Shown here one piece after another: positions 11,912 through 64,000 of a DNA stretch of 64,000 nt. The stretch is from an uncultured delta proteobacterium (GTDB lineage: Bacteria; Desulfobacterota; Binatia; UBA9968): the NCBI GenBank assembly GCA_963771465.1, contig CAVYTU010000015.1:1184001-1248000 (forward strand). Direction: 5' to 3'. Every line of letters begins with the position of its first letter. The stretch's first letter is position 1. A model generated the notes under the pieces. The model did not search any database, was not told the DNA's origin, and was given only the letters and a program-made list of their open reading frames with translations. The position numbers were made by a program, and so were the translations under genes.

Positions 11912-11933
11912 TAAATCCTTAAAAAGGCCCATC

Positions 11934-13430: not shown

Positions 13431-13471
13431 CCCGAATTATCCATGCGATGAGGGGTCACGACGACAGGCCA

Positions 13472-13648
13472 GCGATCGAGGTGTAACCCTGGAGGAACGA
13501 AGGCACCAGCGCAAGTATTTCATTACACGCCTGGTCCCCGGCACGATGTTCGAACTTTTCGCCGCTAATCTCACAGCAGCTCGCCGCGCTCGCGTCTTCA
13601 AGGCACAACTGCTTTGCCTTCGTTCCGGAAGGGTTGCACCTCGATCGC
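13472..13648. repeat. 177-bp element with 34-bp terminal inverted repeats (MITE-like or RNA hairpin)
   Basis: 13472-13505 GCGATCGAGGTGTAACCCTGGAGGAACGAAGGCA versus 13615-13648 TGCCTTCGTTCCGGAAGGGTTGCACCTCGATCGC; 30 of 34 complementary. Confidence 0.8.
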
Positions 13649-13684
13649 CTCCTTACCGCCAATGATCGAACTCAATCAGCAATC

Positions 13685-14686: not shown

Positions 14687-14714
14687 TGCGAATGGGTTGC
14701 CGCCCCCTGCTCAT

Positions 14715-14743
14715 TTGACAGCGTCCCTTGCCCTCAATAGACT
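14715..14743 (+). promoter_or_regulatory. Putative sigma70 promoter
   Basis: TTGACA-17 bp-TAGACT about 40 bp upstream of the ATG at 14786. Confidence 0.55.
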
Positions 14744-14785
14744 TGAGATTCCAGCGAAGCCGAAGCAAACCCAGGGAATTCTTCA

Positions 14786-15883: not shown

Positions 15884-15896
15884 GGAGAGCACACGT

Positions 15897-41973: not shown

Positions 41974-42762
41974 TTAACGTCGCTTGACGACAATGAACTC
42001 TTGAGCTGAACCCGGAGGGCAGGCAGCGAGCTTTGAGCCCGAATTCGCTGGCAGTCGAGGATCCGCGACAATAAAAAGTTCATAATTTCTCCCAACGCTC
42101 GAAGAGCCTTCCACCCCGACCGTCAAATTTGACCGCCATGTGCCCATTGTCCTATCGATCGTTGCTAATTCCTGCTTCCAATAACCGTCTGTGTTAACTG
42201 GATGTACGATCGGCAATAGCGATTTGAAATTTGCGCTGAGGAAACCGGTCGCCAAAACATTCCGGGGCACGGATGAGTTTGGAGTTGGGTTGGTAAAGAG
42301 TAGAAGTGGACCCAACCTGACGATTTGATCGTAAATCTCGTCCGTGGCCTCTCCTACCGCAGCGAGAAAATTATTATCAACACGTCGGCCATTAAAAGTA
42401 GCAAGTGACACGCCAGCAAGATCGCTTGGAATTTTCGGCGGCTTGCTCGAGTCGTAAATCATAAATGTACGATCTGGTCCCAGTCGTCCTAAAAACATTC
42501 CGGCTTCTAAAAGAACATTATCTCGTGGCCCAATAGTAGGGTTACCCCGACTTTCAACAAGATCATCCTGCGTAAGAACCAGAACGGCGAAATCAAATTG
42601 TGCTAATGCTTTTAGAAGGCTCTCAAGATTCCCACGATTAAGGCCGAATACGCCGTCTTTCCAAATCGTGATTTCAGCAACTTCTTTAAGTTGTTGCCTC
42701 ACCTTTCGAGCGATTTTAAGACCCTCCGCAGATGAACCAATGAACAGTGTTGGTGCAGCCAT
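41974..42762 (-). CDS. TIR-domain protein (Cap12/PycTIR-type) with beta-rich C-terminal domain
   Basis: FIGSSAEG, FDFAVLVLTQDD, PRDNVLLEAGMFLGRLG. Confidence 0.88.
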   Translation of the reverse strand: MAAPTLFIGSSAEGLKIARKVRQQLKEVAEITIWKDGVFGLNRGNLESLLKALAQFDFAVLVLTQDDLVESRGNPTIGPRDNVLLEAGMFLGRLGPDRTFMIYDSSKPPKIPSDLAGVSLATFNGRRVDNNFLAAVGEATDEIYDQIVRLGPLLLFTNPTPNSSVPRNVLATGFLSANFKSLLPIVHPVNTDGYWKQELATIDRTMGTWRSNLTVGVEGSSSVGRNYELFIVADPRLPANSGSKLAACPPGSAQEFIVVKRR

Positions 42763-43479
42763 ACCCCACTCCTTTGTGCTCGCGCCGTTGAAACCGCGGG
42801 TGCCTTCTCGTCCACCAAACTGGATCACTTTCAATGGCCGAACTCATTCCCCGGGGCGACTCACGGGAACAATTATTTGAACAACGTGAACAATATGCAC
42901 TTCTAAAATCCTAATAACAAAGCGCAGGGATTCAAAAAATACGGGAGGTGCTACTGAACGAATGGATTCATATCGCCGAAAGCAGTGAGGTTGATTTAAT
43001 AAGCTCTGTAACTAAATAGTTGACTCGATCCAATGAACTGCTCGCGAGAAAAGAAAATTGCCAGAAGCTGAATGAGTTGTTAGCGTATGTCGCAGTGCCT
43101 GTCGGAGCCGTGGAGACAATGATCGGAATGCTCCCAATACTTAGCTCTGCAATCGGGGTGGCGAGCCTCGGGTTCAATTTCGACGCAAAGAGTATCGATA
43201 AAAAACCAGGTGGCGTCCGTTGCTGCGCTAATAATTCGCCCGTTGAGCCTTCGCTTGCGGCCAGAATAGTGTCCTTCCCTACAGCGAAATGTCTGTGGCA
43301 CCGGCAGCGGCCAAAACCCCAGCCCTGCTGAGTTTGCCGGGTAGGACCAGTGTTCGTGCGATTAAATGAATTCAACTGTACGCGCGCTATCCCCTATGCG
43401 CTAACTCATTTGATGGCGCCAACGAGTTTTCTCGACTTGTTGACGAATACGCACATGGGCAACTATAAGACTTCCTAAG

Positions 43480-44336: not shown

Positions 44337-44822
44337 ATGATGAAGCAAGCAAAGAACACGATTTGTCTTTGGTACGATGGCGACGCCGAGGACGCGGCGC
44401 GATTTTACGCCAAGACCTTTCCCGATTCATCCGTTGGCGCGGTGCACCCCGCACCGGGAGACTTTCCGTCCGGGAAGAAAGGGGATGTGTTGACGGTCGA
44501 ATTTACCGTGATGGGAATTCCCTGCCTCGGGCTCAATGGCGGACCCGCGTTCAAGCACAACGAAGCGTTCTCGTTTCAGGTCGCAACCGCAGACCAGGCC
44601 GAAACTGATCGTTACTGGAACGCGATCGTCGGCAACGGCGGCAAAGAGAGTGCGTGCGGCTGGTGCAAGGACAAATGGGGATTGTCCTGGCAGATTACGC
44701 CGATCGTTCTGACCAAAGCGATAACCGATCCCGATCCCGCTGCCGCCAAGCGCGCGTTCGATGCGATGATGGAGATGAAAAAGATCGACATCGCTGCAAT
44801 CGAGGCAGCGCGCCGCGATTGA
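44337..44822 (+). CDS. VOC/PhnB-like (3-demethylubiquinone-9 3-methyltransferase-like) cassette gene
   Basis: CLWYDGDAEDAARFY, LNGGPAF, CGWCKDKWGLSWQI. Confidence 0.9.
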   Translation: MMKQAKNTICLWYDGDAEDAARFYAKTFPDSSVGAVHPAPGDFPSGKKGDVLTVEFTVMGIPCLGLNGGPAFKHNEAFSFQVATADQAETDRYWNAIVGNGGKESACGWCKDKWGLSWQITPIVLTKAITDPDPAAAKRAFDAMMEMKKIDIAAIEAARRD

Positions 44823-44888
44823 AGTTGCAATCTTCGAAGCGTGCATGCCCTTCTCTATCGAAGTCGTTCCGCGGCCACGCGGCGTGCG

Positions 44889-44990
44889 ACATAACCCGCC
44901 GCTGGAGCGGACCGCGGCGGCGGTATACTTGGTTTGCGGTCGAGCGTCGCGCGTGCGCCGCCGCGGCCGCTCAACGGCCTTCCGTTAGGC
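44889..44990 (+). mobile_element. attC site
   Basis: ACATAAC...GAGCGGACCGCGGCGGCG/CGCCGCCGCGGCCGCTC...GTTAGGC imperfect palindrome. Confidence 0.85.
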
Positions 44991-45088
44991 TGACGATTCT
45001 ATCCACAGACTCGAACAGCTCAGCGTGTGGTTTCGATTAAAGAGCAACAGGGAACTCATTGAGTTCTGAAACGCGACATCAGGAGCCT

Positions 45089-45477
45089 ATTATTAAGCTT
45101 AAAGCAGTGCTGACCGTTTCGGCGATTTACCAGGCTGTTGTTGGCCTCGGGATGATGCTCGCTCCCCGGCAGTTTGGTATCGATGCTGTCCCAGCGGATT
45201 CCCCCCGGCGCTGATCGCCTTCCTCCGAATCTTCGGCGGTCCGATGCTTGGGATTGCAGTGCTTAACTGGATGGCTCGGAACGCAGAGCCTTCCGCTGCA
45301 CGAAACGCCATTGTCCTTGCAAATATCGTGGGGTTTGGTTGCGTAACTCTCATGGACGTATGGGGTGTGTTCACTGGTGGCGCCCGCCCGATTGCGAAAC
45401 TGTTCCTTCTGATTCATTTGCTTTTGACTGTCGCCTTCGTCGTTGCATGGCGAACCATCAAGGCGGAAAGGATTTGA
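45089..45477 (+). pseudogene. Cassette-borne small membrane protein, frameshifted
   Basis: KLKAVLTVSAIYQAVVGLGMML... joins ORF 45244-45477 across a C-run; no ATG after the AGGAG. Confidence 0.55.
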
Positions 45478-45489
45478 GACGATGACGCG

Positions 45490-45546
45490 CTCCGGTTGCA
45501 AGCGAACGCCCTCGTGGGCCGGGTCGCTGAGCTTGGGGCGTTAGGG
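45490..45546 (+). mobile_element. Partial attC (right arm)
   Basis: GTCGCTGAGCTTGGGGCGTTAGGG, near identical to the right arm at 52241-52265 on the minus strand. Confidence 0.65.
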
Positions 45547-45646
45547 CGCGAGCGCCTACAGCCGATAGGCGGAAAACGAATTTGATTCTCAATCAAGTAG
45601 TCCGCCCGAATAAGTTCGACTTGCTGGCGGTACTTGTCGATACTAA

Positions 45647-45683
45647 TTTCTGCAAAAGCTGGTCAGTATATTACAGTTAGGCG
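45647..45683 (+). mobile_element. attI-like site 2
   Basis: GCAAAAGCTGGTCAGTATATTACA directly followed by GTTAGGC at 45677. Confidence 0.55.
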
Positions 45684-45703
45684 TCACAGGGGGATCTTAT
45701 TCG

Positions 45704-46474
45704 GTGAACACGTCTTTGCCCGAGAACTGCTTTATCTCACATTCGTATGCCGACTCTGCCGCGCGTGAACGACTTATTCGTAATCTCCCCGACGGCGTAC
45801 GGCCCTTTGTATTCCCGCCTATCCAGGCAGAGCCGCATGAGTTTGTGAGCAAGCCACTAATCGACGCGATACTTGCCTGCGAAGGTCTCATTTACTTTCG
45901 CGGCGGCGCCTCGGACAAATCCTTTTGGGTAGCCTTGGAGCGAGACTATGCTTTACGTTCCGGCAAGCCGGTCTTCTGCTACGACGTCGCAACATCTGAA
46001 CTCTCGCGGGATACCGAGAGGCAGCTAGATCTGGCTGTCTTTGCATCCTATACGCACAATGACCGTACGCGAGTTAGGCAGATCTGCGATTTTCTGGGTC
46101 AAGAACGAAACTTCGATGTCTGGCTAATCTGAATTCTGGGGGTCTTTGGGAGAAAGAGATTGACGAGGGACTTGCTGATCGACTGAAACGCGGCGGCTAT
46201 GTCATTGCATTTTGGTCCGATAGTGCAAGTCGATCCAAGGAGATTGAGAAGGAGCTCGCGGCAGCAGCAGCAAATATTGAGCAGCTAAATGACAAAGTCC
46301 TCTTCGCGCTTCTTGAGCCCAGCCGGCTTCCCGAGTTCTGGCAACGGTTCCACGAGCCGTACGTCCAGCTCTATGGCGATTCCGATCGCTCTGAGACTCA
46401 TCGGATTGATGATCTCGTGGTGCGGTGTATTGGTTGATCTATCGGAAGACAAAGTCCACGGAGGCGATGCCTAA
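45704..46474 (+). pseudogene. Tandem TIR-like domain cassette gene, disrupted
   Basis: CFISHSYAD...SFWVALERDYA; second VFASYTHND...DVWL; then FWSDSASRSKEIEKE after a stop. Confidence 0.7.
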
Positions 46475-46534
46475 TCCATCGCACAAGCGGACAGACGTCG
46501 GCAAGTAGGAGTCTGTCGCTAATAAACGTTAGGC
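46469..46534 (+). mobile_element. Degenerate attC site
   Basis: GCCTAAT...GCGGACAGAC/GTCTGTCGC...GTTAGGC. Confidence 0.65.
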
Positions 46535-46554
46535 TGCACCCCGCCGAGTTTGAG

Positions 46555-46818
46555 ATGTCGCGATATCGCGGAAATATCGGTAACCTACTTCAGCATTCTG
46601 TGCTGGGTGAATTGCTCTGCTCCGCGAATTCGCAATGGGACAACATTCGATTCGTGGATGCCTATGCGATGGCTCCACTCGCAAAAGAACGATTCAAATC
46701 CGGCTGGTCGGCGGCGATCTTCGATCACGCCCGCGATCTATCTCCTGCAAACTCAACGTACGAGCGCACTTGGCGCATACGGATCCAGAATAATTCCGGT
46801 TATCCCACAGCGCGTTGA
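46555..46818 (+). pseudogene. Truncated cassette ORF (weak RlmJ-like N-terminus)
   Basis: GNIGNLLQH...FVDAYAM immediately after the attC. Confidence 0.35.
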
Positions 46819-47067
46819 TCATGCCTTGTGTTCTCGATGGAGAGAGCCGACAAACGTTCGACTGAGCCATCTCCTAAGGTCTCAATGCATCATGTCGAGC
46901 CCACCCGACACGGGACTATGGATTCTCGTAGCACCTGTAACTGCTAAATAATAAAAGATAAATTTTCTGCCAAATCAAACCCTCGGAGAGATAGCAGGCG
47001 GCACTCGCTGTGGGTCCGCAAGTGTTGAGTACGTTGGATTCAAAACCAAGGTTTGACTCGCGCGACA

Positions 47068-47190
47068 CAGCATCACGACCGAACGGAACGAAGTAGTCGC
47101 ACCGATTCACAACCGTATGCCGGCGGTGCTAGCAGACGGCGACGCACTCGAATTGCTCAGTGGCGGCGAGATCACCGACCGTTTTTGAAA
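47068..47190 (+). pseudogene. SOS-response-associated peptidase (SRAP) C-terminal fragment
   Basis: SITTERNEVVAPIHNRMPAVL. Confidence 0.65.
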
Positions 47191-48306
47191 ATCAAACCAC
47201 CACGAAGTTGACATGATGAGTTCAACCGAATAGCGGTCCCACCCACCAAACTCAGCAGAACCTAATGAGCTAGAGTTGTGGACGGCGCCGGTGCTACAGA
47301 CATTTCGGGGCAAAGAGCCGTTCTTCCGCCGTGGGCGAGGTTTCAAGAGGAACGGGTGATTGTCTCCCGCGCCGACCGTCTGAATCAGATGATAAAAGTT
47401 TTGGTTCTGATGATCCAGCTTCCTGCACGGCGGTCGCTCTATTCGGCATTTCGCCATAAGCGAGCACAGTCACAGGAGCGATTCTCACCCACGTTCACGA
47501 CTCGGACACCGCTGGCTGATGCGCTGTTTATGCTACCTAATCGGGCTATTCTGCCGGTGACGGTTTATCGAAACCTGTCTCACACGTGGGCCAAACTTCC
47601 CCAAACTTATTTCGCCGCTCAGGTACCCTGATTGCTCTACTAGCGAGACATCGAGTGAGGTACGGATGATGTACGAAGTCTTAATTCCAACAACGGTAGC
47701 GATGGTCCTACTGCCATTTAATTTTTGGAGTGCAGCGGAAATCGTGCTGTGGGTGGCGTTGGTCACTGTGTCTTGGGAACTTCGCGATGCTGTTCTTGAT
47801 AAGCTTTGCGAGTGCGTCGCTCAAACGCGCTGACCATTAACTTAACTCGTTTTTAGTCTTTCGCTACGTCAGATTTGCATCAATCCCGGCCTGCCGTAGC
47901 AAGCTCTACCCCAACTTCCGAAATAATTCTCAGCGGCGCGTACTAGAGTCGGAAACTCGCGTCGGCATTGGGTACGACCCAGTCCTTGGTGACGACGATG
48001 CATTGAGACAGTAGCTTCAATATCTTTTGGTCGCGGGAGAAACTAAAAGGTTGACAGAGTCGGGTTACGCCGTGACTACGGCTTCCCCAGCAGCTGAGAG
48101 CTGACTTTTACTTCAGGTGGTCGGTCGCGTCAATCGGGAAATGTGAACGCCGCTCGTTGAATGTTGCGGCGAGCGGAGAAGTGCCGACGTGACGGATAGA
48201 TTTTTGTTAGATAAACGTCTGAAGGAAAACTCTCGAAGCTGTCCTAAGTTCTCTGACATTTTGCGAGTTGGACAAACATCTAGCAGCGCTTTTCTTGCAT
48301 TACTTG

Positions 48307-48323
48307 TTGGTATGCCGTTTGCG
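48307..48323 (+). promoter_or_regulatory. Possible sigma54 promoter
   Basis: TTGGTATGCCGTTTGCG with GG-N10-GC spacing upstream of 48368. Confidence 0.4.
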
Positions 48324-48367
48324 TTTCACTTGTGAGTTAGTACTCACGCTAACTAAAGGAGATCACT

Positions 48368-48769
48368 ATGGGATTCTTCGACAAGATTCTCGCGAAACTG
48401 GGCTTCGGCGGCACTGCCGAAAACCCGACTACTATCCCGACATCCGGCACGACGCCCACCAGCTCAAGCACGCCCCCGACCGCTTCATCAGCTCCCAAGC
48501 CGGTTGCGGTCGTCGATGTCGTCGCACAACTGGAGAAGCGCGCAGCGGCTAACCCGCAGAAGCTTAACTGGCGCACTTCCATCGTCGACCTACTAAAGCT
48601 GCTCGACATTGACAGCAGCCTCAGCGCGCGCAAGGAGTTGGCCACTGAGCTGGGCTGCCCCGCCGATCTTATGCAGGACTCTGCTAAGATGAACATGTGG
48701 CTGCACAAGACCGTGCTTGCCCGCATCGCTGCCAATGGCGGCAATGTCCCCAAGGACCTGCTCGACTGA
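48368..48769 (+). CDS. DUF3597 domain protein
   Basis: LNWRTSIVDLLKLLDIDSSLSARKELATELG...MNMWLHK; AAGGAG RBS. Confidence 0.9.
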   Translation: MGFFDKILAKLGFGGTAENPTTIPTSGTTPTSSSTPPTASSAPKPVAVVDVVAQLEKRAAANPQKLNWRTSIVDLLKLLDIDSSLSARKELATELGCPADLMQDSAKMNMWLHKTVLARIAANGGNVPKDLLD

Positions 48770-49575
48770 GCAGATCAGAGCGCACCGCAAGGACATCGTA
48801 GCGGCGTCCAAACATGTTGCAGGGATCGGGGAAGACACCGAAATACTAGCGAGAATCCGTCTAGAACCTTTCAGCGGGTTACATTGTAACGGGTTTAATA
48901 TCGGCAAAGGCCGCCGGCGTGGGGTTTCCGACCCGACTCCGCGGTTGCCGGTCAAAACGAATACGGCAATGTGGAAAACTCTTCAGCAACCCAAGCTTCG
49001 CTCAATATTCTAGCCAGCAATTGATGATTAATCGGTTTGGTCAGATGGTGGTCGAAGGCGCGAAAGCGGCCACTCCATGGGAAGTTCTTTCGTGCGAATG
49101 CGGCTCAAAATCCGTTCAAGCATTGTCTGGCTCGTTCCTTCTCGCTGGAACACAGTACTACAAACCGAGCTCTGCAAAGTCCGGAAAGTCCTTTAATTAA
49201 AAACAGTCGGGGTAGCGACGCGACGAACGAGCAGTATATTTCTGCGATGCGCGCACCATGACCGGCAAAACCTCCAAGGCGCTGGCTCAATTGGATGGCT
49301 ACAAAAGGCCGCTCGTCGGCTCGTTGTCGTCCAATCTCCGCGCTTCGGCATGGAAAGAGTCACCCAACTAGAGTCGCTTCAGGAGATCATCAAGGAGAGG
49401 ACGGATGGGAACGGCGATAATTCACACGAGACCAGTCCAATTACGACGGCAGATACGCAGAATGATGATTGACCAGCCCTCTGCCATCGTCAATCGACAA
49501 CAGACAATTCTATGAGAAAATCGGTCGAGGAAAGCGAGGGATGGACAAAGCGTCTAGCTATGTCATGCTGATGGC

Positions 49576-49764
49576 ATGGCCAAAAAAGCAAAGAAGAGAA
49601 TTGCAACGTCAAAGAGAAAGGCTACCGACTGGAGTATAGGGCAGCCGTTAGTCTTCCCTCAGGTAAAAAATCTCACCGACAACGATCGGCTAGCGCAAGA
49701 AATCGTGGAGGAAATCATAAGACGTCCTTTCAAATCCAAGCGAGAAAAGCGGAAGAAAAAATAG
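49576..49764 (+). CDS. Small basic hypothetical protein
   Basis: 62-aa Lys/Arg-rich ORF. Confidence 0.4.
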   Translation: MAKKAKKRIATSKRKATDWSIGQPLVFPQVKNLTDNDRLAQEIVEEIIRRPFKSKREKRKKK

Positions 49765-49814
49765 CTTCTAATCTCATCTGTGCTGGTGCTTATTCCCGTC
49801 CCACCACTCCTGTA

Positions 49815-50030
49815 ACGCGCGCTACGTGAAATCATCGAGCGACAACTGGAACATACCAAAGCACTGGAGAAAGCGAGGGGTCGCATCATTCCGTCCGCGA
49901 CTTAGAACGCGCCGGAGATTTCCCGATCCGCCGCGATGAAATGGTTGGCCACAAGACCGAATCGATTTACCGGCGCTATGCGATTGCCGACGAATCGATG
50001 CTGCAAGAGGCGGGTGAAAAGATGGAAATC
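49815..50030 (+). pseudogene. Tyrosine integrase C-terminal fragment
   Basis: Across frameshifts: ALREIIERQLEHTKALEK...VRDLERAG.SRSAAMK.VGHKTESIYRRYAIADESMLQEAG (box II His and catalytic Tyr). Confidence 0.8.
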
Positions 50031-50131
50031 GCAATACGTGCATCCTCGCGGCTCCAGCCGAACTCGCCATTCGAGGCCTGAAAGCTTCGGCGCGTCAGCT
50101 CCTTTGGAAACATCCAGTCCTTCACCAGGCG

Positions 50132-50194
50132 GTCTAACGAGTTGGCGATGAGCCGCGGCGAGAAGCGCCGTCGGCTCCATCGCTCTGGTTAGGT
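50132..50194 (-). mobile_element. attC site downstream of the prpE cassette gene
   Basis: Minus strand ACCTAACCAGAGCGATGGAGCCGACGGCG...CGCCGCGGCTCATCGCCAACTCGTTAGAC. Confidence 0.88.
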
Positions 50195-55435: not shown

Positions 55436-55749
55436 GCAAATCTGACCGTGCCTGCGCAGTAACTATTGCGCTGCGTCTGACAAATCGAATCCCGCCAATC
55501 CGCACGCAAAAACCGCGTATGTCCGCTATGCTGTAGGGACACGGCAGGCATACGCGGCAGATCCGGCCCACCAGGAAACCAGAACGCGTTCAGACACGGT
55601 TTAGCGGGCATCGCACAGCGCCGTTCTGACGGTGTTCTCAAACCCAGGGAACAGTCTATTCGAGAGGAAATCCTGTCCGGCTTGCTCACTGACAAAGGTG
55701 GAGCTGCGCAGATCAGCACCGCCACGTGCGTGCTGGCCGGTCACCATTG

Positions 55750-55854
55750 GTCGTCAACTGAATGAATCCAAGCGTCTGAAGGCGTTTGGCTCTCGCTCAA
55801 TTTACCGATTGGAACACATTCGAACAAATAGTTCTGGCAAAGTTGTGGCAAAGT
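55750..55854 (+). repeat. Island-end direct repeat, copy 2
   Basis: Homologous to 52775-52879. Confidence 0.85.
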
Positions 55855-55977
55855 AAAAAGCATAAAGAGCACAAAGTCGAGTAGATCACCGGATGAAGCG
55901 AATGCGACGGTCATAACGGCGTGAGCGTAAACCCGCCGCGGTGATCTTTTAGCGTTAGGCTCTTGGGAGAGTGCCTC

Positions 55978-56178
55978 ATGAGCGTGAGACGAATCCTCGT
56001 GCGGGAGGCGGCTTTGCTGGCCTCTGGAGCGCGGCTGGCGCGGCCCGCAACTCGACGAACTCGGATGTGGCCCAGAGGCCGTGAAGGTGACTCTCGTCAA
56101 CCGCGACGGCTTCCATAACATCCGTGTGCGCAACTACGAGTCAGACCTAACCCCGGTCCGGGTCTCCCTTGATGACGC
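55978..56178 (+). pseudogene. NAD(P)/FAD-dependent oxidoreductase (NDH-2-like) N-terminal fragment
   Basis: MSVRRILV.GGGFAGLWSAAGAAR...VTLVNRD...IRVRNYE across frameshifts; follows GTTAGGC at 55954. Confidence 0.7.
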
Positions 56179-56313: not shown

Positions 56314-58080
56314 TCAGGGTCCATTCGCAAGAACGTCGAAACGAAGGCCACTCGATCCTTCGCCCCGGCCAATCTGTTTACGCCGTCCGATCCATACATG
56401 CGTCGAGCCGTCGAACCACCTGGTGTATTGGTAGTTTCGTGTGATACGCACGCCTTCGCGCGGCACTTCTTCTTCGTACATCTCCAGCGCTCGACCAGGA
56501 TCAGGCGTCAAGATAAGGCCCTTTGCGGTGACCGGCTCCGGAGAGCCATCTGTTTTGAGCACGGCACCACGTTTCAGACGCAGCCCTTCTCCCACACGTG
56601 CCGGCACGAGCGGGATCCAGTAATCAGGGATTTCCGTCGAAAGACGATAGCGCAGCGGTCCGGCTGCCGATGCAGCCTTATCCGCGGTTCTCAGTTCATT
56701 CCGCCGTTTCTTTTCCAAGTAGGTTTCAAATCGACTGAGTGGCCGCTCGGCGGGGCTTTCGATCAGCCGCTCAACCGCCCACGCCAGATTGGCCATTTCG
56801 TCACGCAAGAGCAGCACCTCTTCAATGGGCCGGCTCTCCATACTCTTGAGGAGCGATGGCGGCAGGAAAAACAGATTCATTGCCGGCTTTGTGATTCCGC
56901 TCTCCCGCGTGTAAGAATGCTGGAACATTCGCCACGTGGAGTGGGGCTCGCCCAATTCGCTCGAGGACTTTATCAATGTACGATCACCGAATGTATTGGT
57001 GATGATTAAGGAACGGGTCCGGTAGACAAATCCCACGTCCAGGTCAATAGGTACGACAAACCAGTCATTGCCGTAATCCAGTGCAAATTCGACCAGCAGC
57101 ATGCGCGCCAAGTCGGTCGGCCCGGCGTCCACCGAGCCGAAATCCACCTGGGCGTCTTCAAATTCCCAGAACCGCGCCGCCGGCATGCCGCGAAAGCTGA
57201 CGGGTGCCGGAATGACCGAGTGCGTAATTTCCCTCGAAGGATTGTCCGTCCCGGCTCCGAGGCTCACCTCAGGATTGGCATCGAAGCTGTACCAGTCCAG
57301 ATGACCGTCAAAATATTCCTGCGCGGTCAGTGTGCACTCGCCGTCGCTGAGCCGAGTTGCCACCGAAAACGCATACTCCATGCGCTCCGGCAACCACGAT
57401 GAATTGTTTACATCGGGCTCGCTGAAAAGTGTCTCATACCATTGCAGCCAGAGCCGCGCGGCCTTTTCGACTTCCGCCAAATCGGGCGAAGCAATATGCA
57501 GAACGGGGGCGATGGCAATTCCGCCCGCGTCCGCCGAACGGAAGGCGGCATAAAGCCGCCGACCGTCCGGGACGCGTGATGCCATCAGATCAAAGAAGCC
57601 GAGGCTGTCGCGATCAAGGGTGGCGCGTTGCTCCACCGTCAATGTCGGAAATGGATATTCGGCGATGAACGCCTCGCGGTAATCACGCGACAGCGGCTGC
57701 AGTTCGAGCATGCGTAAGAACTGCTGGCCCGCATCCGCGGCCAGCCTTAGCTTTTCCTGCTGCGCTGTTTGATCTGCTGCCGAACGAACTGGTTCTCGCT
57801 CCACCAGAGTTTCGAGTGGCATGCGGCTGCCGTCATAGTTCGGAGCGTCGACTCTGGTGGTTGGCGGAATGGCTCCCGAATGATACCGGGTCAGCGGCGC
57901 CGATTCGGCGCGCCAACGTGCCATCACCGGCGAGCCGTTGTCTTCTCCCTGGAACTCTCCGAACTGCCATTGTCGCGCCAACAGCCAGAGAGGATCGTAG
58001 ATCCTCGCTTGCAAACTGGTATTCATCTCGGCATCGCGGCTGCGCGGCTCGAGCCGCATCCAACTGGTGATCGATGGCAT
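56314..58080 (-). CDS. Uncharacterised 588-aa protein, third gene of the large-protein operon
   Basis: Intact ORF with WMRLEPR, DPLWLLARQWQFGEFQGEDNGSP, GMPAARFWEFED, YGNDWF, LLRDEMANLAWAVE, GEGSSGLRFD; GAGGG RBS. Confidence 0.85.
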   Translation of the reverse strand: MPSITSWMRLEPRSRDAEMNTSLQARIYDPLWLLARQWQFGEFQGEDNGSPVMARWRAESAPLTRYHSGAIPPTTRVDAPNYDGSRMPLETLVEREPVRSAADQTAQQEKLRLAADAGQQFLRMLELQPLSRDYREAFIAEYPFPTLTVEQRATLDRDSLGFFDLMASRVPDGRRLYAAFRSADAGGIAIAPVLHIASPDLAEVEKAARLWLQWYETLFSEPDVNNSSWLPERMEYAFSVATRLSDGECTLTAQEYFDGHLDWYSFDANPEVSLGAGTDNPSREITHSVIPAPVSFRGMPAARFWEFEDAQVDFGSVDAGPTDLARMLLVEFALDYGNDWFVVPIDLDVGFVYRTRSLIITNTFGDRTLIKSSSELGEPHSTWRMFQHSYTRESGITKPAMNLFFLPPSLLKSMESRPIEEVLLLRDEMANLAWAVERLIESPAERPLSRFETYLEKKRRNELRTADKAASAAGPLRYRLSTEIPDYWIPLVPARVGEGLRLKRGAVLKTDGSPEPVTAKGLILTPDPGRALEMYEEEVPREGVRITRNYQYTRWFDGSTHVWIGRRKQIGRGEGSSGLRFDVLANGP

Positions 58081-58088
58081 TATTCCCT

Positions 58089-61000
58089 CTACTTGATCGG
58101 TGTGAAATCAGTGGAAACGGTATGGCCGGACGTGTTGCAAGCAAAATACAAAGCCGGCAGGTAATGCCCGACTTCATCCAGCGCGTCGGGGTCGACGGCG
58201 CGAATTCTTGCCAGATCGAGAGTTTCCAGCAGCACCTGTTGCAGCGACCAGACCGTCCAAGGCAAATCGACCTGCGGCGGCACGGCGACCAGAATCGTTT
58301 GAGGTGGGGCGGCGTTCGGTTGATCGTACTGAAACGAGATGCCGGTAGTCTCTTTCGCACCCGGCACGACTTCCACCCATTCGTCGATGAGCAGCCCGGC
58401 CAGCGGCCGGCGCACGTCAACCGGCGCGGCGGATTGCACGGCGAGGGAAAGTTTTCCGCCCGCCATGCTCATCCCGGCTTGGAGTGGTAAGCCGACCCAG
58501 CGATCATTGGCGTTGTACGGAAGCTGCGCGATGGTCAATTTGAGTTTTTCTCCAGTCTTGAGCGCTTCGGAATAACTAAGCACGGCATGGAGCCGTGCTA
58601 CGCCTTCGCGCACGCGCGCCATTCGTTGGAACCAGGTGGTAGAAACAAGCGGATCGCCACCTTGTATCTTCGCGCTGTCGGCAAGCGCTTGCTCGAGTTC
58701 AGCGCCATTCACCGAAGTGAAACGAGGCAGTACAACAAACATTTTGCCAAAGACAAGGCGCAGCCGCGCCATAGCGTGATCGCGCCGCTGTTCAACCGTC
58801 GCCGCATTAGGGTTAGGATCGGTGGGGAGCACCGTCAGTTGCGCGACCCGTTGCGCCAACTCTTTTTGGATCGAGCCCGCCTGCGTGAGCAGTATGTGGC
58901 GCTCCGCTGGAGAATCGCCACCAGCGGAAAGCGGCACGGCGCCGGCCACGCCGAAGCCAGCGGAACGCGCAATCAATTCCCGCAATGCCTCCGGGTTAGC
59001 CGTGTTCGGCGCGCTAAATTGTTGGAAGTCGTTGGTCGTCCGGCGCAGCGACTCCTCGGCGTTGGCCGCACGAGTTTCTAACTCGACAACGTCCAAGCCG
59101 GAATCCGCGCTTCGCTCCGGCAAGTTCAAATCGTCAGCGTCAATTCCGCGCGCGCCGGTAATCAGTTTGCGCGCTGTCCGCAACAACTCGCTGAACTCTC
59201 CGTATCCCAACTCACCGGCCGACCATTCCGGTTTGCGGTCGGTATTAACGCGCAGCAGCGAACCGGGCGCGAAGGCGTTCGGCTGTCGCATGATCGTATA
59301 GAAGATGCGTTGTTCGATCTCCGCCTGCTGCCCGCCTTCTCCGCCTTCAACGGCATAAATGAAATCGAGCGGCGCAAGGCGCAGTTCGTTAAGGCGGATC
59401 TCTTTCGTCTCCAAAACCTGTCCGGTCGTCGGTTCAATCCGCTCAACCGCGCAGCGCACACTCGCTGGATTACCGAGCAGTTTGGCCGCCCAAGCGTTCA
59501 ATTGCGGCTCGGCGTTGGCGCGAAAAGATTCCTGGGATGACGCCCATTCGAACGGGAGCTGCGGATCACCGCTGAACAAGGTTACTAGCCGATGCGTCAG
59601 TGCGATGCCGGTGCGCGGCGTCCGTGCGACTTCAAGTTCGGGCGGCGGCGTTTCGCCGCCCGCGATGGATTCCACCGTCATGGCGGCGCGCACCGGATTT
59701 CCGCTCACGACCTGATACATGCTTTCGGCCATCAGCGCATCGCTGACGGCGTCGACGGAATCGGCCAGTCCGTCCAGCTCAGTTTCCAAAACGGATTTTG
59801 CGTTTTCCAGTTCAGGCTGCGGTGGCCTTTTCTGAAGCGGGTTAAAAAGCTCCTTGAGCGCGTCAGTACCCTTGCGCACAGCCAACCAGCGACGCTGCAG
59901 CTCAAGGCCATCCACGACGTTGTTGGCGGCGATGGCTTCGACCGGTTGATCGGTTTGCTCGAGCTTTCGCGCCACTAGAGGTGCCAGTTCGCGGAAAAAC
60001 GAAATGAATTGCGGCTTTTTAGCTTCCTGCAAACGGCGCTCGAATCGGTAACCCAGCAACGCGCCCAGCGGCTGCCCTTGTCTAACGCCGTCGAGCAGCC
60101 AGGTCGCTAACCGCAGACGCTCCGACGACAGATCGATGGCTAGCAGGTCATTCGGCATTTGATTGCCGGCGTGAGCAAGATGACCGCTCCGCAGCACGGC
60201 CGCCGTCGTGGCTTGCGCCAGCGATGGCGCGTGAATGAATCCGGGATTGTTCGCCAACTGAAATACCGGTTCGGATTCTCCGGCCGTCGGGGCGACGATT
60301 GGGATTGTTGCGGCCGCGGGCTGCAGATTCATCACCCAGCCGTAGCCGCCGAACAGCACGCCGGCCGGATTCATCTTGCGCATCTCGGCCAATCGCTTGG
60401 TCGCAAACGAAGTGATCCACGCATCGAGCCGGTAGGAGCACAGATCGAGCGTGCCAGTCATCAACTGTTCAAGTCTGGCGGAATCGAGCGACTTCAGGTG
60501 CGCCAGGCTGGTGCGGAATTCGCTCAGCACTTTAAGTTCGGGTTCCTGGCCGACGTCGGGTTCGCCGGAGGGCGTAAAGCCGAGCAGATATTTTCCGAGC
60601 TCCATTGGATCCTGAACGCCCTGCACGGTGATCTTCGTCGCCATCTGCCGCCAGACGGTTTGCATCAATTGTCCCAGGGGTAGATCCACCAGCTCCGGCT
60701 CGCGGCGCAGCGAGGATTGCAGCAATCCTCGCTGAATCAGCAGCCGCGAGGCGGCAGCCGCGTATTCGAGCAGCATCGAATGGCGGAGCAGCAGGTACAG
60801 AAGCGTGCGCGGCGGCGGTTGTAGAATTGTTTCGTGACGAATCGCGTCGAGGTCTTGCGCGGCGAGCAGCGCTTCGATGTAGTTCGGGGTGAGCGGCGAA
60901 TTTTCCGCCACCTGCCCTGCTTGCACCAACCCTCCTGTGAGGTTCGCGACGCGCGGCGCAAACACGCCATGCGCTAGCCGCGGTGTCCAAGTCACACCCA

Positions 61001-62807
61001 GCTTTTGCAACAAGGCAACAGTGCGCTGGTCGTGTATGGCCGACCAGGCGGATCCAGAGGCCCGCTTGGCAGTGATCATAGCGAGCCTTTGCCGGCGTGC
61101 CTCTATTAACCCGACCCATCGCTGATGCGCCCGTGTGAAAGCGAGCCTTTCCTGCTGCCGGGCGCGGATCCAAGCGATCCTTTCCTGCGGAGACAAGTCC
61201 GGCGGAGGCTCCTCGTCCTCCGGAGCCTGCGGCTCCGGAGGTGGCTCGTCGACAACGGCGCCCCAGACATCCAAAAAAAATTCGGCGCTCAAAAACACCC
61301 ATAGGTGTTCCAGATAGTGGCGGCCCATCAAGTTTCGAATCGAGTAGCTAGACGACCGTCCGTCCATGCTCAGGACCTCGGCCAAGTCTTTGTCGATGCC
61401 TTTTTCCTGATCGAAATCCTCACTCCGGCCGAGGCGCGGCACTTCCGGAAAATTACGCCGCCATAGATCGCGTAGACGGATTAGAAAATCCCGCAGCGCG
61501 ACGTCGCGCGCGAATTGGTTCTGTTGATCGGCCGGCGCCTGCCAGGCGTTGAGCGAGGTCACGGGAAGAATGCCATAGGGCTGCTTGCCGATGCGCAATG
61601 CCGGCAGCGGCCCGCTCGCGCGCACGTAATCGATGAAATGGCTGCGCGCCCAGGCGATGTCATCGTCGCTGAGCGGGCTTTCATTGTCTGCGCCGATACC
61701 GAGCATCTGCAACAGGAAGTAGCCCCACGTCGCCTGCCATAAAGCCGTGTTCATGTGGCGCGCGTCGAGCTGCTCCTTGGTCATCGCATTGGGAAGGTTG
61801 GCAAAAACCTGACCGGCATTCGGCAATCCCAATGCTTTTGTCAGCACATCGGCATTCGAGCCATCGCCGGGTTGAAACGCCGGAGCAGCGCGTTCGGCGA
61901 GATAGCTCGCTTCATGGCCGGGATCTCTGGAGCTGAAGCCGGAAGGCGCATCCGCCGTGTTATTGGAAGGTGTGCCTTCCGGCACGAAACTTAACCCATC
62001 GGTGTAATGGTGCGCGTCGAGCAATTCCGCCAGATGCGGCGTCCAATCTGTCGTCCGGTCGAGCGAATCTTTGATGCCCATCACCAAAACAAAATCCAAT
62101 CCCGCCGCGGCATCCTCTCTTGTCAGTTTTGCGCGAATCCCCATGCCGACGTTTTCCGCCGCGTCGAAATCCACCATCCACTTCATGCCGGCATCGATCC
62201 CGAGTGGGTCAACGTTGGCCGACGGCGAAGGATCCGGACCGGTCGCCAGCGTGTCCGAAATCAATCCTCCTTTGACGTTCACGACCAGCCGGCCGTTTTT
62301 GTAACCCAGCACGATCCACTGATTCGGCAATACGCGCGCCGCCGGTGCGCGCGTCCACGACTCGCTATTGGTCGCAGGAGACGGAAAGCGCGGCGGTTTC
62401 GGCAGCGGCTGATCGACGGCGATCGGATCCGACGGGCGGTCTTCGGGATTCAGCGGTTTGAGCGCGCGCGCGATCCACGCCGCGCGCGGCGGATCGAAAC
62501 GGTCGGCCAACTGGCGCCAGGCGGTTTTTCCGCGTTCTTCGTCGTTCGCCGCGCGCCACGTCTGTTCCCAGAAATGCCGCCCCCAGGCAAGCTCGTCGGC
62601 GGTCAGCTCGGGCTCGTGGGTATCGATATGCACCATATCGGGGTAGACGCGCACGCGCAGCTCGGAACTGCCGTCGACCAGAGTAAAGAACCGCGTTTCC
62701 AACCGCACCGGGAACAACACGAGTGGACGCGCTGGACCAAACGATAGCTGCATCGCGACTTCGGGCGTGTTGGGAATGTTTGGAATGTCAGGATTAGGAG
62801 TACGCAT
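58089..62807 (-). CDS. Uncharacterised 1572-aa protein, second gene of the operon
   Basis: Intact ORF with [56 protein letters not shown]. Confidence 0.88.
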
Positions 62808-62810
62808 GAA

Positions 62811-64000
62811 TCACGTCGAGCCTTGTTTGATCATTTCTTTCGCATGAATCGCGATGCGCACAGGGCGCTGCAGCGTGATGTAAGCCTGGTGCGCGGAGTT
62901 TTTGCCCCACTTCGCCTTGTCCACAACGTCCGGCAGCGTCGTTTTGGTCGAGGCGTGCGAGAGAGCCTTCAATTCGGCTTCGGTATTAGCGAGGTGCCGC
63001 CAGCTTAGATCATTCCAGGTCTCTAAGTCAGGCAGCGGCTTCGCGAAGTTCGCAACGTCCATCCCGAAGCGCGGCTCGGTTGGCTGTTCCTGTATGACGA
63101 AGAACCAGCCGGGGTCGGCGATGGCTTCTTTCTCGGTCAACGCAAAACCCAGAAACGTGACGTCGGGTTTCAGCGTGCCGCGAAAGATCGGATGGCTTTC
63201 CACGGCCGGGGCGGACAGCTCAAGCTGATCTTGTTCTCGCTTCGCCGCCACAGCATAGATCACCGAGTTCGGATACCGTCGCAGCAGCTCGCCGCGAATG
63301 AGCAGCACCAATTGTTCGCCCGCGCCGGCATTCTCGCCGAGCTTGCGGTCGGGCCATTGGTTAATCCTATCGATGTCCGGTTGATCACTGCCGGCCGATG
63401 TATCCCAGAACTGACGAAAATACGTGCCGCGCTGATCGGTCGGATAATTGCGCCAGAGCAGTTCACGGCTCATTTCAGCGTTGAGTCCGACCAGGAACGA
63501 TTCGACGAATTTTGGGTTGGTCTCAAGCAAGGTGACGGTGTTCGCCGGCACCTTCTCCAAACCGGGAAACAGAAAATCCTGCGAGAGGTCGCGTAGCGCT
63601 TCGTACATCGGTTGCGGGAAGTCCGGCGCATCGAGGATCGGCTCGAGCGGATCGGCGCGCGACTCCGTCCCGCCGGCTATGATCAGCGAAGCTTGCACCC
63701 GCGCGCTGATTGTCTTCTCGGGGTCGACGCTTTGCAGCAGCTGCGCTTTGGTAGCGAGGAGATTCATCCGAACCAACGCCGTGGAAGTCGCCGTAGACAT
63801 GAATGTTTTCTCCAGGTAAGCCTGATGCTCTTTCGCCACATTGCGAAACGCCTGCGCGTCAGCGCTATTGGCCGGCAGTCCCGGCGTGAAGTCCAGCAGC
63901 GTGCGCAGCGGCGCATCCTCGGGAACAATTTTAAAATCGCCCAGCGGCGGCGTGGTTTCGAGCGCGTTGGTCGCATTCTCGAAGCGAACGGTTTGCTTTA
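62811..64000 (-). CDS. Uncharacterised large protein, first visible gene of the operon (5' end beyond the window)
   Basis: Frame open to the window edge; FPQPMY, ELLWRNYPTDQRGTYFRQFWD, IRGELLRRYP, FFVIQEQPTEPRFG. Confidence 0.85.
   Translation of the reverse strand, partial: KQTVRFENATNALETTPPLGDFKIVPEDAPLRTLLDFTPGLPANSADAQAFRNVAKEHQAYLEKTFMSTATSTALVRMNLLATKAQLLQSVDPEKTISARVQASLIIAGGTESRADPLEPILDAPDFPQPMYEALRDLSQDFLFPGLEKVPANTVTLLETNPKFVESFLVGLNAEMSRELLWRNYPTDQRGTYFRQFWDTSAGSDQPDIDRINQWPDRKLGENAGAGEQLVLLIRGELLRRYPNSVIYAVAAKREQDQLELSAPAVESHPIFRGTLKPDVTFLGFALTEKEAIADPGWFFVIQEQPTEPRFGMDVANFAKPLPDLETWNDLSWRHLANTEAELKALSHASTKTTLPDVVDKAKWGKNSAHQAYITLQRPVRIAIHAKEMIKQGST

Follow-up and report, generated by a model that had tools for sequence, protein, structure and literature searches.

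Three large genes at one end of the window (the whole 64,000-nucleotide stretch analysed here) are genes 3–5 of a five-gene operon, the distal three fifths of a cassette that spans more than ten phyla and turned up in 581 or more stretches of their reference genomes. The proteins A–D of this cassette probably form a hetero-complex, and the slot in front of A is filled by different enzymes at different loci. We propose that B, C, D and the DUF6603 core of A would make up a chassis, and that the enzyme and the N-terminal region of A would make up an exchangeable cartridge. The reading we favour is of a particle assembled in the cytoplasm and then released, which binds a target and brings a hydrolase to the envelope of foreign cells; we regard it as plausible, if not quite probable.

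Layout of the operon

All five genes are on the minus strand, transcribed in the order payload, A, B, C and D (Table 1). An earlier note on this DNA described the last three as intact, co-directional reading frames, and the ORF listing agrees: B and C are 3 nt apart, C and D 8 nt, and the absence of internal stops from all three is consistent with its statement that they carry no frameshifts. The note treated the trio as a self-contained system, which does not hold. The sequence beyond position 64000, which the note suggested retrieving, completes B and adds two further genes, a DUF6603 gene and a gene of the phospholipase D (PLD) family. On the window's own contig, A ends 271 nt upstream of B, and the PLD gene overlaps the start of A by 16 nt. 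The cassette as found here therefore has a DUF6603 gene directly upstream of B, the series A–B–C–D and a variable enzyme slot. Its only recognisable domains, DUF6603 and PLD, sit in the two upstream genes.

Table 1. Features of the cassette, in window or window-equivalent coordinates and in those of locus record L002
Feature	Window or window-equivalent position	Position in L002	Strand	Description
Gene D	56314..58080		minus	588 aa; ORF P0003; last gene of operon
Gene C	58089..62807		minus	1572 aa; ORF P0002; largest chassis subunit
Gene B, 3' 395 codons	62811..64000 (ORF listing 62811..63998)		minus	open at window end
Gene B in full	to 65654 (window-equivalent)	6811-9654	minus	947 aa; P0004
Gene A	65926-69453 (window-equivalent)	9926-13453	minus	DUF6603 protein; 1175 aa; PF20248
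PLD-family payload gene	69438-71693 (window-equivalent)	13438-15693	minus	751 aa; PF13091 + PF00614
Duplicated 3'-end fragment of A		15705-16307		203 codons; exact ~567-nt repeat; in front of PLD gene

Promoter and terminator scans returned sites no more numerous than in shuffled sequence. A small ORF 3' of D (window 55741–56133) is of low complexity and was therefore rejected as a gene and taken as non-coding. Four RNA libraries gave no contig over parts of the stretch (for example, 62225–62995), which has no bearing either way. The view that most neighbouring genes are fragments stands in part, as far as the surroundings were checked: every ORF between 44.8 and 50.2 kb of the window is 142 aa or shorter, but several other neighbours are intact, including genes for acetyl-CoA synthetase, GH15, a CAP12/Pycsar-type TIR protein and NT5C.

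Proteins without a family

B, C and D have no match in Pfam or NCBIfam at E ≤ 1, and PADLOC-DB 2.0 gave no family at that threshold for C, D and the 395-aa part of B; the absence of recognisable domains reported from the letters alone is thus borne out. So is the absence of signal peptides, noted there for the two complete frames: no 19-residue window reaches a Kyte–Doolittle value of 1.6 in any of the three, which leaves no transmembrane or signal-like segment. Tryptophan makes up 1.9–2.6% of their residues. No weak Pfam match recurs among 26 relatives of C and 31 of B. In the PDB, single-sequence searches with each of A, B, C and D returned no match at E ≤ 1, and the profiles of B and C (the latter of 26 sequences) gave only chance rows at E of about 0.6–0.9. 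The sole match of the D profile, to the coiled coil of PI3K p85 (E = 0.003), was rejected as helical bias. We also discarded paralogy among the three proteins (hhalign probability below 1% for all three pairs).

Structure prediction yielded a model of B with pLDDT 77.6 and pTM 0.67, and an AF2 model of D with pLDDT 66 and pTM 0.58. Foldseek comparison of the whole models, one of the checks proposed in the earlier note, found no PDB match at E ≤ 1e-3 for B or D. A wide VIA search reached Z = 4.3 at best for D and Z = 6.1 for B, the latter over a 63-residue helical hairpin, both under the tool's noise level. In the ESM Atlas, C falls in unnamed clusters only, and there is no usable match for D. 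Our full-text literature search found no paper on DUF6603, PF20248 or IPR046538, and nothing relevant appeared among the papers listed for toxin neighbourhoods. B, C and D match no family in the libraries searched, and the whole models of B and D match no solved fold at the threshold used.

Constant order, co-divergence and fusions

The earlier note had suggested that such proteins recur as a fixed trio in distant phyla, and gene neighbourhoods fully agree. Wherever 300 nt or more of upstream sequence is available, C adjoins D (78 of 78 loci), and the order B, C, D is kept in all 60 loci with at least 8 kb. The same constancy extends to A: among D-anchored loci that extend 9.9 kb or more upstream, drawn from more than ten phyla, 54 of 54 keep the order A, B, C, D, and where A-anchored loci extend 9.5 kb or more downstream, 63 of 67 contain B, C and D together. 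Across the 54 loci, the identities of A, B, C and D to the proteins of this cassette correlate (r = 0.90–0.95). No conserved gene follows D: among 70 loci with 1.5 kb or more of downstream sequence, no family occurs there in more than 5, and the few co-directional genes tested encode SorC-type regulators, UPF0182, SDR, DUF4331 and M36 peptidase proteins.

Natural fusions bridge each junction: A to B in P0275, with PF20248 present in 4 of 71 long B forms; B to C in P0210, on a single contig; and C to D in P0170. Of 82 long D forms, 39 measure 1,804–2,044 aa, one of which was aligned. Some of these fusions may be sequencing errors, and many of the loci come from metagenome bins. Taken together, the invariant order, the co-divergence and the A–B, B–C and C–D fusions argue strongly that A–D form a hetero-complex, in line with the large hetero-oligomeric assembly that the earlier note had envisaged.

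D is the most conserved chassis subunit. Among 8,000 candidates scored, 4,332 are relatives of D at E ≤ 1e-3, and the best 120 of these are 68–88% identical; one cassette subunit keeps 45–88% identity across phyla.

Sporadic distribution and horizontal spread

Close relatives of this genome rarely carry the cassette: among 24 further genomes of the genus D was found in 1, among 16 others of the order in none, and DUF6603 was found in none of 300 others of the phylum. On a quick tree of D, as all our trees are, phyla are interleaved. The rarity of the cassette among relatives indicates that this genome acquired it horizontally, consistent with the earlier suggestion that it moves as cargo. Carriers are mostly soil and rhizosphere bacteria, and cultured ones include Variovorax, Caulobacter zeae, Caulobacter radicis, Sphingomonas deserti, Nodosilinea PCC 7104, Neobacillus, Arthrobacter, Micromonospora and Streptomyces.

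Strong horizontal transfer would also fit a mobile element, virus-like or other, of which the cassette would be a remnant or a module; the large proteins, with their receptor-binding-type insertions, would then form a structural particle rather than a cellular weapon. Orphan and broken copies point the same way (G019 has a second copy in fragments, and L110 is a module of A alone). However, no integrase, replication or packaging gene recurs beside the cassette in the loci examined, PHROG searches with B, C and D gave nothing but one match at E = 0.065, a Foldseek viral search with the B model gave nothing at E ≤ 1e-3, and Rfam and tRNA scans of the 64-kb window had no hits. We consider a mobile-element origin of this kind very unlikely.

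A payload slot and its cartridge

A matches PF20248 over profile positions 3–501 of 502 (E = 7.7e-140). Upstream of A, a co-directional gene of at least 300 aa fills the slot in 58 of 67 loci. Its product is PhoD-like in 24 loci, a PLD protein in 19 and M64-like in 3, an unknown cluster accounts for 4, and single genes encode, among others, trypsin-like, Amidase_2 and Rv2525c-like glycoside hydrolase proteins (the family search outside the PLD set covered 20 proteins). These payload classes are ones that cut envelope polymers.

The payload here matches PF13091 at residues 387–515 (E = 3.1e-16) and PF00614 at 485–511 (E = 6.7e-11), and H260/K262 and H485/K487/D492/N502 are conserved without exception across 20 sequences. 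By its two HxK(x)4D (HKD) motifs it is predicted to be an active enzyme of the phospholipase D superfamily. A strongly hydrophobic hairpin occupies one of two positions in this protein (residues 546–580) and in 16 of 19 relatives.

Payload type does not follow the chassis: on the D tree it requires 10 changes versus a shuffled mean of 10.3. On a tree of the N-terminal 400 residues of 32 A proteins, the PLD-linked ones lie on one side of a single branch (1 change; 0 of 200 shuffles were as low), whereas the DUF6603 cores of the same 32 proteins give 9 changes versus a shuffled mean of 9.8. In 22 of 24 loci with a PhoD-like payload, the N-terminus of A is of a different kind. An exact copy of about 567 nt from the 3' end of A, lying in front of the PLD gene, is a further sign of such exchange. 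From these comparisons, the payload gene and the N-terminal ~400 residues of A appear to be exchanged as one cartridge.

The enzyme may dock on this N-terminal domain. Predicted docking of PLD residues 1–125 and 590–747 against A residues 1–450 scored 0.52, in the weak band, compared with 0.01 for the best of three controls, on a scale on which 58 of 80 solved complexes but also 2 of 110 mismatched pairs reach the mark, and on which scores of 0.60 or less include only 7 of the 80 solved complexes but both passing mismatches. At least 40% of contacts agreed between runs and partner pLDDT was at least 71; the run used its own alignments and three chains, and the calibration was set up differently. 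We rejected a docking domain common to all payload classes: HMMs built from the two terminal domains of the PLD proteins, N and C, matched 19 of 19 PLD and 0 of 39 other slot proteins, so no such domain is visible by sequence.

The payload repertoire could also be that of a surface-bound or released scaffold that displays enzymes to scavenge phosphate, lipids, peptides and wall fragments from soil necromass. PhoD-like phosphoesterases are the commonest payload (24 of 58), with PLD, peptidases and wall hydrolases next; the carriers live mainly in soil and the rhizosphere, necromass could be bound through the glycan-binding modules, and such a scaffold would need no immunity gene. Against this, the proteins lack an export signal as well as any wall or S-layer anchor, a scaffold of about 4,300 aa is a high cost for one enzyme, the hydrophobic hairpins of the PLD proteins suggest insertion into an intact membrane, and a housekeeping role in nutrition would not be expected to be so sporadic among close relatives. 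We think that scavenging is an improbable function.

Inserted binding modules

Relatives of D in other lineages carry PA14 or lectin modules at a display site after residue ~66–88. Among the 82 long D forms, precomputed Pfam matches place PA14 in 6. The inserted PA14 matches those of RsgI3 (PDB, E = 1e-73) and anthrax protective antigen (5e-6), and other modules match a sialidase-B lectin, a LamG-like module of pappalysin and an arabinanase. Ig-like, Kelch, beta/gamma-crystallin and discoidin-type domains are also found, and one long D form carries TPR-type families. The PA14-bearing forms of cultured Caulobacter and Sphingomonas lie within full cassettes. In B, FG-GAP repeats occur in about 36 of 71 long forms, together with FN3, PKD and Big domains, and DUF3892 is inserted in about 27 of the 71; the FG-GAP/DUF3892 insertion falls between residues 543 and 586. 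The basic forms, including this cassette, have no lectin module.

DUF3892 bears on another function offered by the earlier note, an anti-phage machine. Two sources tie this domain to intracellular anti-phage conflict systems and propose that it senses viral RNA or ribosomes in defence (PMC12419801; bioRxiv 10.1101/2022.04.27.489752). In such an abortive-infection machine, the chassis would sense infection inside the cell and free the enzyme on the membrane, nucleic acids or wall of the host. The patchy, horizontally mobile distribution fits, as do the lack of signal peptides in all five proteins and the free swapping of effector enzymes, which is seen in many defence systems. A CAP12/Pycsar-type TIR gene lies 14 kb from the cassette (window 41974–42834), and the PLD payload weakly resembles DISARM DrmC at the HKD motif (E = 2.5e-5, well short of the cut-off).

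However, the PADLOC result for C, D and the 395-aa part of B speaks against defence, and nothing in ~5,000 aa resembles an NTPase, a nuclease sensor or a signalling enzyme. The PA14, lectin, discoidin-type, Ig-like, FN3, PKD and FG-GAP insertions are of extracellular type, and the M64-like peptidase, muramoyl amidase and GH25-like payloads fit attack on an envelope from outside better. In the few loci examined elsewhere, the neighbours are unrelated housekeeping genes rather than defence islands. An intracellular defence role is accordingly one that we judge unlikely. Nothing in the evidence speaks for the compartment that the same note proposed as a further option, here considered as one of encapsulin type.

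A proposed delivery particle

The lectin, PA14, Ig-like and FG-GAP modules, combined with envelope-cutting payloads, favour action on a foreign surface, and with it the toxin/effector delivery particle, one of three functions that the earlier note left side by side. In the proposed mechanism, the cartridge would be exchanged by recombination as a unit, and the chassis subunits would assemble at about 1:1:1:1 in the cytoplasm, given the lack of signal peptides and of an ATPase. The N-terminal domain of A would hold the enzyme, and the particle would be released and act outside the producer cell. Exposed loops of B and D, often with glycan-binding or adhesion modules, would bind the foreign surface, and the hydrolase would attack the envelope of the target cell. 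Against this reading, we found no signal peptide, anchor or secretion partner in the five proteins and no lysis or export gene in the operon. Nor is there an immunity gene beside the enzyme: there is no small ORF between the payload gene and A or, apart from the low-complexity one, after D. The published tie of DUF3892 to conflict inside the cell, the TPR-type families of one long D form and the lack of lectin modules in the basic forms also count against it.

If hydrolase delivery is true, the cassette would be a major unrecognised player in soil microbial conflict and a natural modular design of chassis, cartridge and aiming module. If it serves defence or scavenging instead, it is still a new kind of machine. 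Because cultured and harmless carriers exist, these possibilities can be tested directly.

Comparison with known systems

The known entity closest to hand is DUF6603 (PF20248), which A matches and of which B, C and D are the constant partners; the Pfam entry covers A alone and states no function, and B, C and D are in no library searched.

Tc (ABC) toxins, from bacteria associated with insects and nematodes, are what the cassette may resemble in its working. They combine several giant subunits without signal peptides, an exchangeable enzyme and receptor-binding modules, and they show natural fusions and horizontal spread. The cassette shares the giant subunits, the swapped enzyme, the inserted modules, the fusions and the horizontal spread. 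However, neither its five proteins nor the 26 C and 31 B relatives have a VRP1, SpvB, RHS or TcA-type match in Pfam or NCBIfam, and neither the TcA shell and channel nor the BC cocoon is among the listed Foldseek and VIA matches of the B and D models, which are large and of middling confidence. The enzyme here is a separate gene product, predicted to dock to an adaptor domain, and not the C-terminal tip of an RHS cocoon, and no channel-forming part was found in the cassette. Rhs and CDI polymorphic toxins place the toxin domain at the C-terminal end of a long carrier and a small immunity gene behind it, whereas the cassette enzyme is a separate first gene overlapped by A, with no small immunity gene.

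Extracellular contractile injection systems (eCIS) and tailocins are assembled in the cytoplasm and released, with swappable lectin- or Ig-type targeting modules and dedicated cargo adaptor regions. The proposed particle would share cytoplasmic assembly, release, swappable binding modules and adaptor-loaded cargo. It has only five genes, though, and no sheath, tube, baseplate, spike or AAA+ ATPase match of the kind found in eCIS, tailocins and T6SS (Pfam, NCBIfam and PHROG); the flanks of the cassette encode unrelated proteins.

In the T6SS, an effector with its specific adaptor plugs into a constant machine, and the cassette would likewise join an enzyme and a specific adaptor to constant parts. 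The enzyme repertoires are also alike: the effector classes listed for T6SS include phospholipase D, amidase, glycoside hydrolase and metallopeptidase (PMC12994826). However, the cassette lacks T6SS genes, PAAR, VgrG and Hcp among them, and its enzyme has no immunity gene beside it. With CBASS, Pycsar and similar defence systems, it shares a constant core, a swappable enzyme, a sporadic distribution and the lack of signal peptides, but it has no nucleotide cyclase, NTPase or known sensor, and homologues of B and D carry extracellular-type modules.

Across more than ten phyla and at least 581 genome stretches, the cassette keeps about 5,000 residues of protein in invariant order, and we found no description of anything like it. 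More tentatively than for delivery itself, we suggest that it may represent a fourth enzyme-delivery architecture next to contractile injection systems, Tc toxins and polymorphic toxins, mostly of soil bacteria: free of ATPases, built from four giant proteins, aimed by lectins and re-armed by the swapping of a cartridge.

Operon structure

The three ORFs that the earlier note had described are real, share the minus strand with gaps of 3 and 8 nt and contain no internal stops. When the sequence beyond position 64,000 was retrieved and the contig read 21 kb past the window's end, the first of them was completed to 947 aa and proved to be preceded by two more co-directional genes, for a PLD-like and a DUF6603 protein. 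Here A, B, C and D denote the four successive operon proteins, and the payload, or slot gene, is the enzyme gene directly upstream of A. We call the payload gene together with the N-terminal ~400 residues of A the cartridge, and the DUF6603 core of A with B, C and D the chassis. The genome carries one cassette. All five operon proteins are acidic, and no hydrophobic segment or signal-like N terminus was found in B, C or D.

Features of the operon and its surroundings (L002, continuation of the window's contig)
Feature	Position	Strand	Assignment	Remark
Payload, 751 aa	L002:13438-15693	-	PLD-like: PF13091 (E 3.1e-16), PF00614 (E 6.7e-11)	16-nt overlap with A
A, 1175 aa	L002:9926-13453	-	PF20248 (DUF6603), E 7.7e-140	271-nt gap to B
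B, 947 aa	window 62811 onward	-	without family	3-nt gap to C
B, part inside window	62811..63998	-		395 codons, open at window's end
C, 1572 aa	window 58089..62807	-	without family	8-nt gap to D
D, 588 aa	window 56314..58080	-	without family	last gene
A 3'-end repeat, copies	L002:15705-16307 and L002:9929-10537			window-equivalent 71705-72307 and 65929-66537
TIR protein, 286 aa	window 41974-42834	-	CAP12/Pycsar-effector-type, PF10137 E 1.2e-27	14 kb from operon
AAA_22 ATPase protein, 499 aa	window 36574-38073	+	E 4.9e-28	C-terminal bacterial SH3 domain

A conserved chassis across phyla

Among 8,000 candidates scored, 4,332 are relatives of D at E ≤ 1e-3; the best 120 share 68–88% identity with it and every one is unnamed. 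On contigs from one genome per species, a D relative is encoded on 381 stretches and an A relative on at least 581. Carriers belong to the Acidobacteriota, Chloroflexota, Verrucomicrobiota, Nitrospirota, Gemmatimonadota, Pseudomonadota, Myxococcota, Cyanobacteriota, Bacillota, Actinomycetota and Bacteroidota. A D-like region (35% identity, 77% coverage) also occurs in P0161, a 1040-aa protein labelled Candidatus Odinarchaeota, and the family thus reaches archaea or their bins.

Gene order is invariant in 80 D-anchored loci, each count being limited to loci with enough upstream flank: C adjoins D in 78 of 78 (at least 300 nt), B, C and D follow one another in 60 of 60 (at least 8 kb) and all four genes in 54 of 54 (at least 9.9 kb). 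The fixed trio in distant phyla that the earlier note proposed is thereby borne out. B, C and D are all present in 63 of 67 loci anchored on A and having 9.5 kb or more of downstream sequence; one exception has A only (L110) and three have no D within reach (L119, L136 and L137). B, C and D are all missing from the 10 kb around an orphan Amidase_2-type gene and DUF6603 gene at L110:6484-11956; the same metagenome bin also contains a complete PLD-type cassette (L093/L009). No recurrent gene family lies 3' of D (clusters of downstream ORFs extend over 5 of 70 loci at most), and the downstream ORFs that were family-tested are housekeeping genes. At one Nitrospira locus, a same-strand fungalysin-type (M36) metallopeptidase gene that may be a second payload follows D (L054:11284-13092).

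Across 54 loci, identities to our A, B, C and D are correlated between proteins (r 0.90–0.95), and natural fusions cover every neighbouring pair, always in gene order. PF20248 is fused to B in P0275 and three further proteins, B to C in P0210 (one contig, which could be an error) and C to D in P0170 from Streptomyces. Among the 82 long D forms listed, 39 have the size of a C–D fusion (1804–2044 aa), the aligned one being P0170. Two metagenome bins have further single ORFs, of C with D (L010:4656-11162, 2168 aa) and of B with part of C (L081:2007-7715, 1902 aa), which could reflect genuine fusion or indel errors in long reads. Because order is fixed, identities are correlated and fusions occur at each junction, we infer that A, B, C and D form a hetero-complex with equal subunit numbers; the hetero-oligomer suggested in the earlier note gains support from the same evidence.

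B, C and D resemble no family that we searched. HMM scans against Pfam, NCBIfam and PADLOC returned no family at E ≤ 1, in agreement with the absence of recognizable domains noted before, and a PHROG scan gave a single match (E 0.065). No recurrent Pfam family appeared among 26 C and 31 B relatives scanned singly, and PDB sequence searches were empty with single proteins and profiles alike. Paralogy among the three families was rejected by pairwise family comparison. AlphaFold2 models, built from alignments of our own, had a pLDDT of 66 for D and 77.6 for B. At E ≤ 1e-3, Foldseek matched neither model in the PDB, nor B in a viral library; in a Foldseek-independent fold search the best Z score was 4.3 for D and, on a 63-residue helical hairpin, 6.1 for B, both below the tool's noise level. 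We report no match found for the two whole-chain models and do not claim a new fold. A full-text literature search, with supplements outside its reach, found no papers on DUF6603, PF20248 or IPR046538.

A swappable enzyme cartridge

Of 67 loci in which A is full-length and 2 kb or more of upstream sequence is available, 58 have a slot gene (co-directional, at least 300 aa, ending within 600 nt of A); in the remainder the longest ORF is on the opposite strand (6), shorter (2) or absent (1). PhoD-like metallophosphoesterases (24) and PLD enzymes (19) dominate, followed by one unknown cluster (4) and M64-like peptidases (3, with a fourth, L111, outside the count). Single cases include a trypsin-like peptidase, Amidase_2, an Rv2525c-like glycoside-hydrolase domain and several proteins without matches. 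On a 49-row D tree with 29 labelled rows, payload type requires 10 changes, where shuffling gives 10.3 on average, and is without any phylogenetic signal.

The payload is nevertheless tied to one part of A. The first ~400 residues of our A are matched in 19 of 19 PLD loci (match starts at residues 1–31), whereas the match begins at residue 277 or later in 22 of 24 PhoD loci. We compared trees of residues 1–400 and of the DUF6603 core (455–1017) for 32 A proteins with our N-terminus type, 20 of them PLD-linked. In the N-terminal tree one branch separates 20 of 20 PLD-linked proteins from the rest (0 of 200 shuffles were as low), and all ten payload classes need the minimum of 9 changes, whereas in the core tree PLD/other changes number 9 (shuffled mean 9.8). 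Judged from these sequences, the payload travels with the A N-terminal domain, and the disagreement between the two trees marks a recurrent recombination boundary inside gene A. An exact ~567-nt copy (100% identity) of A's last ~189 codons, an open frame of 163–203 codons, lies directly upstream of the PLD gene. The resulting direct repeats flank this gene plus most of gene A and look like a fresh footprint of cartridge exchange or of tandem duplication.

PLD payloads keep both HKD motifs. A strongly hydrophobic insertion of 25–60 residues occupies one of two sites in 16 of 19 PLD relatives and in ours (residues 546–580); elsewhere it occurs in 0 of 3 M64 payloads, 2 of 31 B members and 5 of 37 D members. 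The payload alignment (A6) places the insertions at our residues ~240–300 and ~546–587 in two subgroups, which apparently gained them independently.

A three-chain docking prediction, of the PLD N- and C-terminal non-catalytic domains with A residues 1–450, scored 0.52 (best of three controls, 0.01). Replacing the PLD C-terminal chain lowered the score to 0.01. Runs agree on 40% or more of their contacts, and partner pLDDT is at least 71. The calibration, from which this job differs, has 58 of 80 solved complexes and 2 of 110 mismatches reaching the mark; scores of 0.60 or less at the mark belong to only 7 of the 80 solved complexes but to both passing mismatches. The model thus weakly supports docking of the PLD flanking domains on this part of A. 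These domains were found in no other payload class among the slot proteins searched, which argues against a general docking domain.

Binding modules inserted in B and D homologues

Of the 82 longer D homologues listed, six carry PF07691 (PA14); the other families, by accession, we take to be discoidin-type, TIG, Big, Kelch, laminin-G and pentaxin-type, and D forms of 766–770 aa carry a beta/gamma-crystallin module, so named by JGI. Residues 320–457 of the long D protein P0146 match two PA14 domains in the PDB, from RsgI3 (E 1e-73) and from anthrax protective antigen (5e-6), and P0127 gives partial matches to an extracellular arabinanase, an S-layer-domain protein, pappalysin-1 and sialidase B. 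The P0146 insert (~470 residues) falls between D residues ~66 and ~88, past the first predicted hairpin, and D proteins of this type sit in complete A-B-C-D cassettes of Caulobacter zeae, Caulobacter radicis and Sphingomonas deserti. Among 71 longer B homologues listed, about 36 have FG-GAP-like repeats and about 27 DUF3892, and some have FN3, PKD or Big families; the insert of P0218 (~810 residues) lies between B residues 543 and 586, adjoining the least confident stretch of the B model. Modules of these kinds serve surface binding in extracellular adhesins, in the fibres of phages and tailocins and in toxins.

Mobility and surroundings

Of 24 further genomes in the genus, one (G019) was found to have D, and of 16 further genomes in the order, none; PF20248 was not found in any of 300 other genomes sampled from the phylum of the window (of 301 searched, 259 were at least 90% complete). 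The cassette is rare in this genome's own phylum. The G019 genome has one long D copy and one in pieces with 2 TGA stops. Of the copies (G019:C16:218112-219882 and G019:C17:371412-373173), the one with the 2 TGA stops is spread across several reading frames and so is broken or mis-assembled; the other is in two pieces. On the D tree, a quick tree with many rows from metagenome bins, the starred branches force 7 or more changes for Acidobacteriota. A copy from Nitrospiraceae has one from Pyrinomonadaceae as its sister (100), and Heliomicrobium stands beside Verrucomicrobiota (99). This patchy occurrence and the interleaving of phyla uphold the proposal that the operon moves as cargo; that it is a module of an unknown mobile element we consider very unlikely.

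Near-identical DNA (at least half of sampled words) was found in 12 DNA rows. They come from soil, rhizosphere and 'urban' metagenomes of 9 studies, and the source may be among them. Parts of B, C and D are also covered by short contigs, mostly at least 99% alike, in four metatranscriptome libraries from four studies (15, 7, 5 and 3 contigs). These are only consistent with expression because such RNA libraries can contain DNA.

The surroundings are mixed, with intact housekeeping genes, a CAP12/Pycsar-type TIR gene that is likely a stand-alone or remnant defence gene, judging by its sequence, and a 5-kb stretch of short ORFs only. In this stretch (window 44822-50193, ~5.4 kb) ORFs do not exceed 142 aa, and neither a tRNA nor an Rfam match was found; it may consist of decayed genes.

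A proposed delivery particle

Tentatively, and at somewhat less than an even chance, we propose a particle that delivers a hydrolase to foreign cells. The A core, B, C and D would assemble in the cytoplasm, with one hydrolase held by the A N-terminal domain; the particle would exit by a route outside the operon (lysis is a guess), bind a foreign surface through B and D and bring the enzyme to attack the envelope of the bound cell. Against this proposal stand the missing export signal, lysis gene and immunity gene, the bare forms of our own B and D and the weak docking score. It is also countered by DUF3892, which section 28 of PMC12419801 and a passage of bioRxiv 10.1101/2022.04.27.489752, both citing Burroughs and Aravind 2020, tie to intracellular anti-phage conflict. 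An abortive-infection defence machine and a nutrient-scavenging display scaffold are each unlikely in our estimate, and the probability left over falls to something else. Working analogues of the delivery particle are Tc toxins and tailocin/eCIS particles, which it would resemble in how it works and not by membership: of the sequence-level features defining those families, none that we tested was found in the cassette.
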